A stretch of 60,281 nucleotides of DNA from assembly GCA_903937405.1 (NCBI GenBank), contig CAIZZE010000072.1, forward strand, positions 1 through 60,281, in the 5' to 3' direction. The notes below the pieces were generated by a model, which did not search any database, was not told the origin of the DNA, and was given only the letters and a program-made list of their open reading frames with translations. A program made the position numbers and the translations under genes. Positions 1 through 6,068 of this stretch are shown one piece after another (position 1 is the stretch's first letter; each line of letters opens with the position of its first letter). Source of the stretch: an uncultured Alphaproteobacteria bacterium (GTDB taxonomy: Bacteria > Pseudomonadota > Alphaproteobacteria > Rickettsiales > UBA1997).

Positions 1-77
1 GCAAACATATCGCGATTGAAAAAACTATTGATGAAAATAGTAAAATAAATGACGATGAAAAAGAAATTTCTGATAGT

Positions 78-2981
78 CTAAATTGTTAGAATTTTTACTG
101 TCGGAAAATGCAGAGTGTTAGATGAAGTTTGAGTTATTACATATAATCGATTTAACACCACGAAAGGATTAAAAATTTTCACATCTTTTAAAAAGCGATC
201 AACCTGCATTTGACAAGAAGAGCCGCTAACCATAATCACATTAGTTTGATCTTGCGCTAGTTTGGCAATTATCTGCTGCCAGTTACTTTCAAAAATTATT
301 TTAGAGTCGGCGAAATTTTCCACCTCAGTTCCAAAACTACCACTCATACCACAACAGCCAGCTTTGATGATATTTAAATCAATGGCAAATTTTTTGAAAA
401 TAGCACTCCATGTTTCGGTGATTTTTGTAATATTGGTTTGCTCAGAGCAATGTAAAATCAGGTGATATTTTTTTTCTGCGTTGAAATCTTTTTTAAAATC
501 AATTGGTCTTTCCAATTGGCCTAAAAATTCCGGCAAATATAAAACATCAATTTTTTGATCATTAAAACGGCAATATTCATCGCGATAAGAAAGTGCAATA
601 CTTGGATCAATGCTTATCAGCTGGCCTTGTAAACTATTTAGATAATCCAAATTCTTGGCAACAACTTTACGAAAACGGTTTAAAAAACCTTTAGCATGAA
701 GCGCTTTGCCATTTTCAAAAACTTTGGTTAATTCAACATTAAAACCCAATTTCTTCAGCAATTCGTAAGCATTTTGCAATTCATTGCTGCAAAAATAATT
801 AACGTAAGCTTCGCGCAATAAATAAATTTTATCTTTTGATTCAGATTTAGAGCCATCAATTCTCGCAGCTTTTCCAATCGCCAAAACATCAGTCACGCCA
901 AAAATTTTACGCGCTAAATATTTAGCAATTTTATTTTGAGTTAAAAAATTAACGACCTGAGGAAATTTTCCAAAAACCAATAATAAAGATTCGATATTTC
1001 CAATTAAATAATCCTGCGCTTTGCGAAAATTTTTGGTAAAATAAAGCGATAAAAAATAAGCCTTGGCATCAGGAATACTAACTTTAATCGGGCATTGCGT
1101 GTTACAAGCTTTGCAGCCTAAACATTTCTTAAAAGATTCAAAAATTTCGCTTTCAAGATTTTTCTTAAAAATATTTAAAAATTTCTGCGGCAAATTTTTA
1201 AAAGAATCAACAACATCAACTTTTATTGAAGGCAATTTTTGATTACGGCGCACCCATTCTTTAAAGAGCATCGCCCTGCCCTTTGGCGAAAAGCGCCGAT
1301 CTTTTGTTGCCTTATATGAAGGACACATCGCGGTTGCGGCATCTAAATTAAAACATAAAGCATTGCCGTTGCAGCTGAGAATATTTTCAAATTCATCATG
1401 AATTTCTGGCGCTATATTTTCATCAAACTGACCTCGCGTTGGAACTTGGTCAATTGCAAGTAAATTGTGATTTACAGCCGCAATTTTGCCGCAATTTAAT
1501 TGATTGAATGGATCAAAATATTTTTTGATTTCTTTAAAAATTTTTTCAACTTCAGCGCCTAAAAATTTTTCATTATATTCGCTTCTAAAACCTTTGCCAT
1601 GCTCGCCCCAAATTATGCCCCGATGTTGCAAAAGTAGCTCGCAAACTTCGTCAGAAATTTTTCTAATCAAATTGCGATCTTGCTCTTGGCGCATATTTAG
1701 CGCTGGTCGCACATGCAAACATCCAGCATCGACGTGACCGAACATTCCATAAACCACGCCATATTTTTTTAGAATATTACGAAAACCGGCAATGTAATTT
1801 GCCAATTCTTGCGGCGGCACAATTGTATCTTCAACAAATGGAATTGGTCTTCTTTTGCCTTTCATGGCGCCAAGCAAGCCAACGCCTTGTTTGCGCAAGT
1901 TCCAAATGTTGGCGATTTCAGTTTTATTTTCGATTAGAAAAAAATTTTCAAAAAGATAATTTCCTTGTTCAAGCTTCTGTTTTAAAGAGTCAGCGTGATT
2001 TTCAAATTCCTGCAAATCATCATAAGAAAATTCTAAAATATTAATTGAAGTGTCATTTCCATCACCAATCAAATGGGCAACATCTTGCCAAATAATGTCG
2101 TTTCGCGCTAAACGAATTACATTTTCATCAATAGTTTCAATCGCCGCTGGCTTTAGAGCGATAAGATTTTGCGCATCATTTAACGCGGCATCAAAATTTT
2201 TATAACGCAGCAAAACTACACGTTTTTTGAGCGGTAGTTTTTTTAGCTTTACCGTAATTTTACTAACTAAAGCCAAAGTGCCTTCCGAACCGCTGATTAA
2301 ATAATTTAAATCAACATCACCATCAGAGTAAGACTTCTCAATATTATAGGCTGTAGCGGTGCGCGCCAAGTGTTTTGAAGAATAAATATTTTGCGCTTTG
2401 GCTAAAATTGCACCCAGGTTTTTATCATTATTTTTCTTACTCGAAATTACATCGTCATTACCAAGTAAGTGCAATGTCAAATCTTCAATATTATCTGATG
2501 TTCTGCCGTGAACACACGAACCCTTACCGCAAGCATCAGTATTAACCATGCCACCAATTGTAGCGCGGTTGCTCGGTGAAATATTTGGCGGAAAATAAAG
2601 ATTAAATTTTTCGAGTTCTTTATTTAACACATCCAAAATCAAACCCGGTTCAACTTCGGCGCGCAGGTTTTTTTCATCAATTGCGATGATTTTATTCATG
2701 TAGCGCGAATAATCGACAATGAGTCCATAATTGATTGATTGACCGTTAGTACTAGTTCCGCCGCCTCGAGCTGTTATTTTTATTTGACGATATTTTTCCA
2801 GACGCAGAAATTTAAAAATCAGCGCTACATCGTTTTGATTTTTGGGAAAAATCACGCCGTCAGGCTTTAATTCGTAAATACTATTGTCGGTTGCGTAAGT
2901 AATGGCAACCGATTCATCAGTTGCAATATCGCCGCTAAAACCACTGTTTTTAAGATCAAAAAGAAAATTATTTAGGCGCAT
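78..2981 (-). CDS. ydiJ: Large FAD-linked oxidase fused to a 4Fe-4S/CCG (GlcD+GlcF-like) module, YdiJ-type; candidate D-2-hydroxyglutarate / 2-hydroxyacid dehydrogenase
   Basis: 967-aa ORF. N-terminal FAD-binding region (RGGGTSTNGQS), central ferredoxin-type CLGCKACNTQCP motif, and C-terminal CCG motif (CCGMSGSFG). Overlaps the serB stop by 10 nt. Confidence 0.72.
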   Translation of the reverse strand: MRLNNFLFDLKNSGFSGDIATDESVAITYATDNSIYELKPDGVIFPKNQNDVALIFKFLRLEKYRQIKITARGGGTSTNGQSINYGLIVDYSRYMNKIIAIDEKNLRAEVEPGLILDVLNKELEKFNLYFPPNISPSNRATIGGMVNTDACGKGSCVHGRTSDNIEDLTLHLLGNDDVISSKKNNDKNLGAILAKAQNIYSSKHLARTATAYNIEKSYSDGDVDLNYLISGSEGTLALVSKITVKLKKLPLKKRVVLLRYKNFDAALNDAQNLIALKPAAIETIDENVIRLARNDIIWQDVAHLIGDGNDTSINILEFSYDDLQEFENHADSLKQKLEQGNYLFENFFLIENKTEIANIWNLRKQGVGLLGAMKGKRRPIPFVEDTIVPPQELANYIAGFRNILKKYGVVYGMFGHVDAGCLHVRPALNMRQEQDRNLIRKISDEVCELLLQHRGIIWGEHGKGFRSEYNEKFLGAEVEKIFKEIKKYFDPFNQLNCGKIAAVNHNLLAIDQVPTRGQFDENIAPEIHDEFENILSCNGNALCFNLDAATAMCPSYKATKDRRFSPKGRAMLFKEWVRRNQKLPSIKVDVVDSFKNLPQKFLNIFKKNLESEIFESFKKCLGCKACNTQCPIKVSIPDAKAYFLSLYFTKNFRKAQDYLIGNIESLLLVFGKFPQVVNFLTQNKIAKYLARKIFGVTDVLAIGKAARIDGSKSESKDKIYLLREAYVNYFCSNELQNAYELLKKLGFNVELTKVFENGKALHAKGFLNRFRKVVAKNLDYLNSLQGQLISIDPSIALSYRDEYCRFNDQKIDVLYLPEFLGQLERPIDFKKDFNAEKKYHLILHCSEQTNITKITETWSAIFKKFAIDLNIIKAGCCGMSGSFGTEVENFADSKIIFESNWQQIIAKLAQDQTNVIMVSGSSCQMQVDRFLKDVKIFNPFVVLNRLYVITQTSSNTLHFPTVKILTI

Positions 2982-3646
2982 AAAAACTTGATCAAATCAC
3001 CAACATTATAGAAAAAGTTTGGCGCTTCTTTGATAACAGCTTCTCTCGCAGCATGTTCTCCAAAACCGCAGAAAATTACGTTGGGATTGGCTTTGGAAAC
3101 TTCCAAATCTGTGTAACCATCTCCTATCATGAAAATTTTATCGTAATATTTTTTGGTCAGAATTTGCGCCACAATTTTTGGTTTTCCACCATTTTGCGCC
3201 ATAATATTTGATTGATCAAAACCAACTATTTTCAAGCCTTCATAAATAAAATTATTAGCAAAACAATTTTCTTTGGCGATGCCTAATTTCTCTGCAACCG
3301 GATTGATAATTTCCAAAAAACCACCGGAAATAATGTAAATATTAAATTCAGATTTTAACTGCTTGATGCCAGAAACAAAACCATCGGTGATGTAATTACA
3401 AATTTCATTTTTTAGAGAATCGATGTCAGATTTTTCAAGTTTAATTTGGGCAAAGCGTAAACGCAGCGAATCAGCAAAGGTAAGCTTTCCCGACATTGCC
3501 ATATTGGTAATTTTTTCAACTTCTTGCTGATTTTCTTTCACAGTTTTACCAATCAAAAAATCAAGCGTTTCAATTGAAACTAAAGTTGAATCAAAATCAA
3601 AAATGGCACATTTAGTTGGCGCGTGCGGTTTCATAAGCATATTCAA
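2972..3646 (-). CDS. serB: Phosphoserine phosphatase (HAD superfamily)
   Basis: HAD motif I (FDFDSTL) near the N-terminus and GDGYTD near the C-terminus. Sits between serC and ydiJ with overlapping ends. Confidence 0.8.
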   Translation of the reverse strand: MNMLMKPHAPTKCAIFDFDSTLVSIETLDFLIGKTVKENQQEVEKITNMAMSGKLTFADSLRLRFAQIKLEKSDIDSLKNEICNYITDGFVSGIKQLKSEFNIYIISGGFLEIINPVAEKLGIAKENCFANNFIYEGLKIVGFDQSNIMAQNGGKPKIVAQILTKKYYDKIFMIGDGYTDLEVSKANPNVIFCGFGEHAAREAVIKEAPNFFYNVGDLIKFLCA

Positions 3647-4766
3647 ACCAGTTACATAAATTTTTTATATCTTCAGATTCAACGGTCAAACCACACCAAA
3701 CCCGAAATGATGGTGGCGCGGAATTGTAACCTTTAATGTCGAAAGCAACTTTTTCTGCTTGTAAAATTGCAGCAACTTTATCGATGAATATTCTTTGCTG
3801 ATCTTGCGCCAACTCTTTAAACCAGGTTTGCGAAATGGTAAAACAAACTGAAGTGCGCGATTGATATTTTTCATCGGCGCATAAATTTTCAAAATTTTTA
3901 GAAGTTTTTAAAAAGTGAGAAATTGCTGAGAAATTATTATTAACTCTTTCATACATCGCGGCAATGCCGCCATTTTGGTCGATCCAGCTTAAAACATCTT
4001 GAGCGTCAAGAATACAAGACATTGATGGAGTGTTGATAACAGAGCCTTCAAAAACATTGGCTTGAAATGCGCCTTTCTTTTTAAGCTGGTAAATTTTTGG
4101 GAGAGGCCAGTTTGGCGTATATTTTTCAATACGCTCAACTGCACGCTGGCTTAGGATTAAAACACCGTGCTGCGCTTCGCCGCCTAAAGATTTTTGCCAA
4201 GAATAAGTTGTGATATCGAGTTTACTAAAATCAATTGGCATCGAAAAGGTAGCGGAAGTTGCATCACAAAAGGTCAAACCTTTTCTGTCATTAGGAATGA
4301 AATCCAAATCATTAATGCAAACGCCAGAAGTTGTGCCATTCAATGTAAATACAACGTCATTATCGAAATTAACTGCGGCAAGATCAGGAATTTTACCAAA
4401 ATCAGCACTGAATTTGCGCACATCTTGTAAACGCAATTGTTCGGTAATTGCTTTATACCATTCAGCTCCAAAAGCTTCGAAATAAATTACATCAATTGGA
4501 CGTTCACCCAACATATTCCACATTGCACATTCAAAAGCGCCAGTATCGGAAGCGGCGATGATAGCGATTTTATAATCTTTGGGAACATCAAGAAATTTTA
4601 GACTTAAAGCGTTAACTTCGTTAATCAGATTAAGCGCCTCTTTTGAACGATGAGATCTGCCTAAAAGATCAGTTTTATTTAAGAATTCAGCATTCCAACC
4701 CGGACGCTTGGCGCAAGGGCCGCTGCTGAATTTATTTGATTGTGGTTTTGTGATTGGCTTAGTCAT
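3612..4766 (-). CDS. serC: Phosphoserine aminotransferase
   Basis: 384-aa aminotransferase-like ORF with the N-terminal FSSGPCAKRPGW segment typical of the short SerC type. Lies 3 nt downstream of serA and overlaps serB. Confidence 0.8.
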   Translation of the reverse strand: MTKPITKPQSNKFSSGPCAKRPGWNAEFLNKTDLLGRSHRSKEALNLINEVNALSLKFLDVPKDYKIAIIAASDTGAFECAMWNMLGERPIDVIYFEAFGAEWYKAITEQLRLQDVRKFSADFGKIPDLAAVNFDNDVVFTLNGTTSGVCINDLDFIPNDRKGLTFCDATSATFSMPIDFSKLDITTYSWQKSLGGEAQHGVLILSQRAVERIEKYTPNWPLPKIYQLKKKGAFQANVFEGSVINTPSMSCILDAQDVLSWIDQNGGIAAMYERVNNNFSAISHFLKTSKNFENLCADEKYQSRTSVCFTISQTWFKELAQDQQRIFIDKVAAILQAEKVAFDIKGYNSAPPSFRVWCGLTVESEDIKNLCNWFEYAYETARAN

Positions 4767-4769
4767 GTT

Positions 4770-5969
4770 TTACAAAATTCTAACTGAAATTGTTCCCGAA
4801 ATTTCTTTTAATGCTTGCTCCAAATTGCTGGGAATTGATTTCGATTCAACGTCCAAAACCACATAACCAATGCTGTTGTCGGTTGAGAGAATTTGTGACT
4901 GAATGTTTAAATCATATTTACTGATTTCCAAATTGATCGCTTGCAACATGCCTGGTGTGTTGACGTGAACGTGAGTAATTCTGCTGCATGATTCTTTTGT
5001 TTTTTGCAGCGATAAGTTTGGATAATTAACCGACATCGCAGTTGAGCCAATTAAATGGTTTTGCGCCAATTTATTTGACACTTCAATGGCAATGTTTTCT
5101 TGCGCTTCTTGCGTGCTGCCGCCGATATGCGGAGTTAGCAAAACATTATCGAATTTTCTGAGAGGCGAAATAAATTCTTCATTATTGCCGGCTGGTTCAC
5201 TTGGAAAAACATCGATTGCGGCACCGGCAATATGTTTTGATTCCAAGGCTTCTGCCAAAGCATCAATATCAATCACATTGCCTCTTGAAGCATTGATTAC
5301 AAAGGCTCCTTTCTTCATTTTTGCCAGACTATCTTTGTTAATAATATTGTTGGTGCTCTGATCTTGCGGCACATGCAATGTAATTACATCGGAATTTTTC
5401 AACAACTCATCCAAACTATTAACTTGACGGTTTGAACCAAATGGCAATTTATTTTCGACATCGTGATAAATCACATTCATACCAATCGCATCAGCAATCA
5501 CGCCAACTTGCGCGCCGATATTGCCATAACCGATAATTCCCAAAGTTTTATTTTTAATTTCGTTGCAGCCTTGCGCATTCTTGCTCCACATTCCTTTATG
5601 CATTTCAACATTTACGATATGCAATCTGCGGTAAAGCGAAATAATTTCGCCGATCACTAATTCAGCAACTGATCTGGTGTTGGAAAAAGGCGCGTTAAAA
5701 ACTGGAATGCCTAATATTTTTGCGGCTTCAAGATCAACTTGATCGGTGCCAATGCAAAAGCAACCAACGCAAGAAAGATTAGTAAATTTTTGCAAAACTT
5801 CTTTGGTTAATTTGCTGCGCGATCTGATTCCTAGAACATTTGCAGAAAACACTTCTTGTGGCGCATCTTCAATACTGGTTTTAAGAATTTGCACATTATC
5901 AATGCCGAATTTTTTAAAGACGGCAAGAGATGCCTCGCTGATATTTTCGAGAAGAACTACTTTTGTCAT
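4770..5969 (-). CDS. serA: D-3-phosphoglycerate dehydrogenase with C-terminal ACT-like regulatory domain
   Basis: D-2-hydroxyacid dehydrogenase NAD site (GIIGYGNIGAQVG), the LTPHIGGST catalytic region, and a C-terminal regulatory domain of about 70 aa. Confidence 0.85.
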   Translation of the reverse strand: MTKVVLLENISEASLAVFKKFGIDNVQILKTSIEDAPQEVFSANVLGIRSRSKLTKEVLQKFTNLSCVGCFCIGTDQVDLEAAKILGIPVFNAPFSNTRSVAELVIGEIISLYRRLHIVNVEMHKGMWSKNAQGCNEIKNKTLGIIGYGNIGAQVGVIADAIGMNVIYHDVENKLPFGSNRQVNSLDELLKNSDVITLHVPQDQSTNNIINKDSLAKMKKGAFVINASRGNVIDIDALAEALESKHIAGAAIDVFPSEPAGNNEEFISPLRKFDNVLLTPHIGGSTQEAQENIAIEVSNKLAQNHLIGSTAMSVNYPNLSLQKTKESCSRITHVHVNTPGMLQAINLEISKYDLNIQSQILSTDNSIGYVVLDVESKSIPSNLEQALKEISGTISVRIL

Positions 5970-6068
5970 GATTTTTTAAGCTGATTAGATTTTTAAAAAG
6001 AGCGCGGCAAATTAAAGTGAATGAGCTAAATTGCTACTGTTGGAATTGGAAATCTTTCTTTGTAATTA

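Follow-up and report, generated by a model that had tools for sequence, protein, structure and literature searches.

At one end of a 60,281-nucleotide stretch (the window, contig CAIZZE010000072.1) from an uncultured freshwater Rickettsiales metagenome-assembled genome (MAG; 1.66 Mb, 98.6% complete), serA, serC and serB are followed on the minus strand by a gene for a 967-aa FAD/Fe-S protein resembling E. coli YdiJ. Our analysis indicates, at a probability of roughly 0.8, that these four genes form a self-contained serine module in which SerA makes D-2-hydroxyglutarate (D-2-HG) and the YdiJ-like enzyme re-oxidises it. A SerA/D-2-HG dehydrogenase couple had been put forward in the original prediction and is now well supported by a type II SerA with a CXC motif, a YdiJ active site, the joint presence or absence of the genes and the occurrence of ydiJ relatives beside hglS. 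The further claim that physical linkage is genetic evidence for the couple stands as confirmation; it does not reveal the couple, since this has already been shown experimentally in E. coli (PMC9504171, PMC12297413).

In the proposed scheme, SerA would oxidise 3-phosphoglycerate (3PG); its NADH, which stays tightly bound, would be re-oxidised as 2-oxoglutarate is reduced to D-2-HG. SerC and SerB, whose genes are intact, would complete serine from phosphohydroxypyruvate. The YdiJ-like enzyme would turn D-2-HG back into 2-oxoglutarate at its metal/FAD site, and the electrons would pass through its Fe-S clusters and GlpC/CCG half to ubiquinone (Q), without an electron-transfer flavoprotein (ETF). 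The net reaction would be 3PG + glutamate + Q + H2O -> serine + 2-oxoglutarate + Pi + QH2. Since D-2-HG formation is an unavoidable part of type II SerA turnover, the scheme would also account for the four genes being kept or lost together.

The YdiJ-like protein

The fourth gene (78..2981, minus strand) is an open reading frame (ORF) of 967 codons for a putative D-2-HG dehydrogenase. Its product aligned end to end with E. coli YdiJ (37% identity, full length, 998 alignment columns), sharing the active-site residues and eleven cysteines and bearing out the common architecture that had been proposed for the two proteins. Profile searches matched it to PF01565, PF02913, PF13183 and, at E 1e-294, to NF049975 (over 15-1015 of 1018 model positions), and show a single chain in which a GlcD-like FAD half (FAD-binding domain 40-172, FAD-oxidase_C 250-500) is joined to a 4Fe-4S dicluster domain (536-634) and a GlpC/CCG-type C-terminal half. 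The Pfam CCG model gave no reported match at E<=0.001; a CCG motif (C876-C877-G878) and GlpC-type NCBIfam matches are present in this half. It was the only FAD-oxidase_C protein found in its own genome.

The metal- and substrate-binding residues of human D-2-HG dehydrogenase (D2HGDH; R386, H434, H441, E475 and H476) align to R363, H416, H423, E460 and H461, and these, together with R425, are common to E. coli YdiJ and show little or no variation across 134 aligned relatives. The same degree of conservation holds for the eleven cysteines shared with E. coli YdiJ (C537, C543, C553, C620, C623, C626, C630, C845, C876, C877 and C923), and the pocket segments of the two proteins match almost residue for residue. 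The Lys/Tyr/Asn triad that binds the C5 carboxylate in human D2HGDH is not kept, the aligned positions being V383, F414 and R425. Arginine stands at the human N443 position in E. coli YdiJ as well, and the enzymes of the PDB alignments that oxidise lactate or glycolate carry uncharged residues there, a pattern suggesting that Arg425 may fit a dicarboxylate substrate.

Two other enzyme types fit the protein less well. At 967 aa with an Fe-S half, it differs from GlcD-only D2HGDH of the Pseudomonas/human type (~460-520 aa, without the Fe-S half); its score against the glycolate oxidase GlcD model TIGR00387 is 191 bits against a cut-off of 568; and Arg425 occupies the distal position of the pocket, which is hydrophobic in D-lactate dehydrogenase/GlcD. 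An AlphaFold2 model (mean predicted local distance difference test, pLDDT, 87; predicted TM-score 0.89) matched FAD-dependent D-2-hydroxyacid dehydrogenases over its N-terminal half (TMt 0.80-0.87 in a PDB fold search). In a quick tree, the module sequences form a clade inside the YdiJ-like ingroup (support 100 vs two paralogs) and fall within a 42-row group with E. coli YdiJ (Shimodaira-Hasegawa-like approximate likelihood-ratio support 87), on a long stem of uncertain position. It is very probable that the YdiJ-like enzyme oxidises D-2-HG in this lineage.

SerA, SerC and SerB

The serA gene (4770..5969, minus strand) encodes a 399-aa type II D-3-phosphoglycerate dehydrogenase, 50% identical to E. 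coli SerA, that passes NF008759 (548 bits vs cut-off 404) and consists of the catalytic core and ACT domain without an ASB domain. Its CXC motif (C70-F-C72) marks transhydrogenase 3-phosphoglycerate dehydrogenases (PHGDH), and type II PHGDH has been reported to be unable to act as a plain 3-phosphoglycerate dehydrogenase, with D-2-HG as co-product (PMC13434204, PMC6300728). F95, R229, E258, H281 and the serine site H335/N337/N355 are kept, so that core and ACT, CXC, catalytic His/Glu/Arg and serine-binding His-Asn-Asn all agree with type II PHGDH such as E. coli SerA and yeast Ser33. It differs in lacking the Gly-Gly hinge and in having Asn (N150) for the NADH-lock His of E. coli. The type II structure 3k5p has Asn there too, and the position is filled by H, S, N or R among type II sequences. 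SerA is thus best described as a putative 3PG:2-oxoglutarate transhydrogenase making D-2-HG, of the type II kind. Other sampled families of the order have type I SerA of 525-550 aa.

SerC (3612..4766, minus strand; 384 aa) is a phosphoserine aminotransferase of the TIGR01365 type, passing both that model (463 vs 448) and NF002841 (533 vs 477); it represents the type found throughout the order and is 45-52% identical to serC of other families. The third gene, serB, runs on the minus strand from 2972 to a start at 3646 (TTG), 3640 (ATG) or 3634 (ATG) and encodes a short HAD-family protein, a putative phosphoserine phosphatase (224 aa from the TTG). Among PDB entries it comes closest to phosphoserine phosphatases (E 3e-26), its HAD motifs are present, and its TIGR00338 score (103 bits) is below the cut-off of 144.

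Probable electron transfer to quinone

HglS, ETF and ETF-quinone oxidoreductase (ETF-QO) were not found in the window's own genome, in which controls were detected. Since the genome has neither ETF nor HglS, SerA is the evident source of D-2-HG and a self-contained enzyme fits; a GlcD-only D2HGDH would have no acceptor here. The genome encodes UbiA-family genes, UbiB, UbiE, a UbiH-like gene, cytochrome b, Icd, Pgk and GlyA. Direct transfer of electrons from the YdiJ-like enzyme to ubiquinone is favoured by the absence of ETF and ETF-QO, and we consider it probable, with less confidence than the substrate.

The same substrate and couple would also be compatible with oxygen, a cytochrome or a soluble carrier as acceptor, which would make the enzyme a clean-up step and not an entry point to respiration. 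The literature describes the physiological acceptor of YdiJ as unknown and suggests direct quinone use only by analogy with PP4737. This alternative is nevertheless unlikely given that all Fe-S and CCG cysteines are conserved, that E. coli YdiJ requires its two halves in vivo and that the near-complete genome combines ubiquinone genes and cytochrome b with no detected ETF system.

Distribution in Rickettsiales

Relatives of the host are MAGs from fresh water and groundwater, several of them carrying the label Rickettsiales; their NCBI labels conflict, one relative in a second family being labelled Deianiraeaceae, and Gamibacteraceae (PMC9352585) is our guess for the host family. Among 25 sampled genomes of the genus, all four genes occur in nine, with serB accompanying serA and serC in every one, and none of the four was found in the other 16 with the queries used (nine of these 16 are at least 94% complete). 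Carriers and non-carriers alternate in an RpoB tree, requiring at least six state changes.

Across the family, ydiJ of this kind is present in 15 of 126 genomes (14 in the genus, one in another genus). In all 15, ydiJ lies behind serB with serC upstream, some copies having inserted genes or contig breaks and all having differing flanks. The order of the block is kept at 56-97% identity across carriers while flanking genes vary by genome, and it is not due to chance. The linkage therefore holds in related genomes, as it also does in the second family: G046 has the full four-gene block, and G080 has ydiJ head-to-head with a different type II serA, its serC-serB being on another contig. In one metagenome, serA-serC-serB and ydiJ are on separate contigs.

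Several block variants were seen among the relatives. In G002 and G004, a LysR gene and a gene for a 685-aa protein that contains an EpmB/KamA-like radical-SAM segment lie between serA and serC (L103:11271-14296 and L104:6116-9141), and a Fic adenylyltransferase gene lies between serC and serB; a related LysR gene with a partial partner is on G000:C25, in the window's own genome. The ydiJ of G014 (L109:2468-5304) is split into two overlapping ORFs, with a break near residue 503 at the GlcD/Fe-S border that is either natural or a frameshift. Isocitrate dehydrogenase, a source of 2-oxoglutarate, is encoded within two genes of serA in four carriers, on L104, L106, L107 and L108 (identified by N-terminal sequence only), which is possibly the ancestral position of the block.

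Linkage in other Pseudomonadota

How often ydiJ-like genes neighbour ser genes was a question raised by the original prediction. We surveyed 400 Pseudomonadota genomes, of which 68 have a YdiJ-like gene and 59 of these also a type II SerA. None of the 59 showed the two linked: they share a contig in 24 genomes, at a least distance of 56 kb, and are on different contigs in the other 35, where the inspected flanks lacked type II serA. The linkage is thus a lineage trait and not a general one.

Relatives of ydiJ without a type II SerA partner are often next to hglS, whose product makes D-2-HG in lysine breakdown and is unrelated to SerA; this neighbourhood has been published (bioRxiv 10.1101/450254; PMC12297413). 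We found it in P0032, P0035, P0038, G069, G289 and G582. The association of ydiJ with two unrelated D-2-HG producers, SerA and HglS, is the best context evidence for its substrate. In the Rickettsiales genome G069 (L099:6485-10707), hglS overlaps or lies near ydiJ, as it does on L198 and L200 (one alpha- and one other proteobacterial genome); here this enzyme type serves lysine catabolism. In G500, a genome without type II SerA, a D-2-hydroxyacid dehydrogenase without the CXC motif is encoded directly upstream of ydiJ (L203:4000-8071) and is possibly a third D-2-HG producer.

The lysine context raises the question of whether the main job of the enzyme is to consume D-2-HG from outside the cell or from lysine breakdown, its position behind the ser genes being secondary. 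Such a role is known for PP4493, which serves D-lysine catabolism, and the nearest outside YdiJ relatives (~40% identity) lie in lysine-catabolic clusters with hglS. It is very improbable here: the genome has no detected HglS, no copy of the module has a transporter or hglS beside it, and the presence of ydiJ tracks that of serA, serC and serB.

Points against a serine-linked D-2-HG dehydrogenase

Several observations weigh against the proposed module. On NF049975, the protein scores 980 bits against the curated YdiJ cut-off of 1350, and we therefore call it YdiJ-like and not a member of the equivalog; hglS-linked relatives also score below the cut-off (1130-1239 bits). The module YdiJ clade sits on a long branch in the quick tree. 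Arginine at 425 is also found in outgroup paralogs and is hence not unique to YdiJ, and its use as a YdiJ-diagnostic residue was dropped. G224 (84% complete) has type II serA-serC-serB, and neither ydiJ nor FAD-oxidase_C was found in it. In three other Rickettsiales families, YdiJ-like genes occur where the only SerA is type I. Finally, genes that sit side by side may be lost together simply because they are linked, and joint loss in an all-or-none pattern therefore does not count as independent proof; this objection has less force against the G080 arrangement and the hglS cases.

Low identity to E. coli YdiJ, the long branch and the sub-cut-off score could together mean that the enzyme diverged toward another or broader 2-hydroxyacid (D-lactate, D-malate, glycolate or D-glycerate) and rides along with the ser genes. 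Its top structural matches are indeed D-lactate dehydrogenases. This ranking arises because no YdiJ structure was found in the PDB copy searched, and the fold search consequently cannot tell the substrate. The near-identity of the pocket to that of E. coli YdiJ, an enzyme reported to be strictly specific for D-2-HG, argues against such divergence, as does a linkage that persists through insertions and changed flanks and, in G080, with serA alone. We regard the divergence as improbable, and oxidation of D-2-HG from SerA as the better account.

Two side observations were made on relatives. The SerC of G224 (L194:3867-5882) has an N-terminal extension of ~285 residues in the same frame. In hosts of genus g4, family f4, whose only SerA is type I, contigs L100, L101 and L102 carry a divergent YdiJ-like gene (31-38% identity, residues following the catalytic His changed) immediately behind ubiE-ubiB, a position that hints at a quinone link.

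Relation to known systems

Oxidation of D-2-HG by YdiJ has been shown for E. coli and Pantoea ananatis (Samsonov et al. 2022, PMC9504171) and for P. putida relatives (bioRxiv 10.1101/450254). In E. coli, D-2-HG accumulates upon deletion of ydiJ, and deletion of serA prevents the build-up (PMC9504171 and PMC12297413). The protein described here shares with YdiJ of E. coli K-12 (b1687) and P. ananatis the GlcD + Fe-S + GlpC/CCG layout, active-site residues, cysteines and a type II SerA partner, but it is ~70 residues shorter than the E. coli protein and falls below the NCBIfam cut-off. E. coli ydiJ is located with menI, 1.3 Mb from serA, whereas here it is the last gene of a serA-serC-serB block.

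The Pseudomonas SerA/D2HGDH couple (Zhang et al. 2017 PNAS, as cited in PMC9504171) follows the same metabolic logic. Its D2HGDH is GlcD-only and needs ETF and ETF-QO; in the present genome, both are undetected, the fused type is used and the whole pathway is in the block. serA is among the most frequent d2hgdh neighbours (Xiao et al. 2021, PMC8651671). P. putida PP4493 (51% identical to E. coli YdiJ), found with HgcR, is of the same enzyme type and oxidises D-2-HG (bioRxiv 10.1101/450254 and PMC12297413); in PP4493/hglS systems, D-2-HG comes from HglS, while the window has neither hglS nor an adjacent LysR regulator.

A literature search of incomplete coverage found no serA-serC-serB operon and no published YdiJ-type gene in a complete ser block, whether in Rickettsiales or elsewhere. 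None of the chemistry is new, having been described in E. coli and Pseudomonas; only the four-gene packaging appears undescribed. The block nonetheless gives independent genomic support for YdiJ-type enzymes in type II SerA serine synthesis, a link that came earlier from enterobacterial knockouts in which the genes are unlinked. It also offers a compact ETF-free unit in which the electron-acceptor question of YdiJ can be tested, possibly a useful part for serine-pathway engineering, and a marker of uncultured freshwater Rickettsiales lineages able to make serine, a trait that is patchy among close relatives.

Origin and history

The nearest named outside relatives of SerA are gammaproteobacterial (52-55%). 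Type II SerA sequences from Rickettsiales group in a single clade, as do the module YdiJ sequences, which suggests early acquisition followed by many losses. The module combines a serC of native type, a serA of gammaproteobacterial type and a ydiJ; it was probably put together early in two related Rickettsiales families and then repeatedly lost. Its GC content is that of the genome, arguing against a recent foreign origin. A concatenated module tree gave no resolved branching within the genus, so that loss and transfer are not separable at that level.

Between families, ser genes have moved at least once. RpoB and flanking genes of G046 are 32-47% identical to those of the window's genome, compared with 76% for SerA and 69% for SerC. 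Approximately unbiased (AU) tests rejected trees that join SerA of G046 to SerA of G080, its congener (p 0.0004), and trees that place SerC of G046 with its own family (p 0.0016); G046 YdiJ does group with G080 YdiJ. The simplest reading is that imported serA-serC-serB joined a resident ydiJ in G046. Transfer of the whole block in one piece was considered and held only in part, SerA and SerC indicating transfer and YdiJ grouping with G080. Contig L190, with a deformylase 62% identical to that of G027, was considered as a third-family module, an idea given up when the SerA and SerC on it were found to group with those of G729, a member of the window's own family.

A bolder and more tentative proposal, to which we give somewhat less than even odds, is that small-genome Rickettsiales have in this block a portable module for serine prototrophy, with the ETF-independent YdiJ as its obligatory fourth member turning serine synthesis into a direct ubiquinone-reducing input. 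The module would be gained, lost and re-assembled as a unit, as in G046, by import of ser genes to a resident ydiJ, and in G080, by placement of a different serA next to ydiJ. If so, close relatives would flip between making and importing serine.

Gene junctions and the end of ydiJ

ORF coordinates place serA, serC, serB and the FAD/Fe-S gene contiguously on the minus strand, as had been described. The 3-nt gap and the 10-nt overlap given earlier are exact, and the 35-nt serC/serB overlap holds only with the TTG start; it is 29 or 23 nt with the ATG starts at 3640 or 3634. Most homologous serB ORFs start ~5 residues before the first HAD motif, downstream of the TTG and ATG candidates here. The phrase "fused into one operon" is apt for an operon-like block and not for a gene fusion. 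A promoter/terminator scan of the block gave matches at chance level only, so the operon label rests on spacing and conservation. A 99-bp AT-rich spacer between surA and serA (5970..6068, minus strand) may be a promoter region, or transcription may read through from ctpA-surA.

Window positions 4..141 are 100% identical over 138 bp to the start of another contig, C47 (G000:C47:1-138), and positions 78-137 within it encode residues 948-967 of the ydiJ-like ORF, whose stop also comes from the 138 bp. In kin at 92-97% identity, YdiJ ends at 943-953 aa, and next to it comes either a convergent pgk or a single inserted gene; these two findings indicate that the tail is not part of the conserved enzyme. 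Residues 951-967 have pLDDT <50 in the AlphaFold2 model. The conserved part ends near residue 947, and the tail is a repeat end or a misjoin.

The 138-bp stretch probably marks one end of a mobile element or of a repeat collapsed in assembly; the other end was not found. It begins with TGT on the minus strand, and two contigs end in the same 138 bp; it would be inserted behind ydiJ here and behind a penicillin-binding-protein-like gene on C47.

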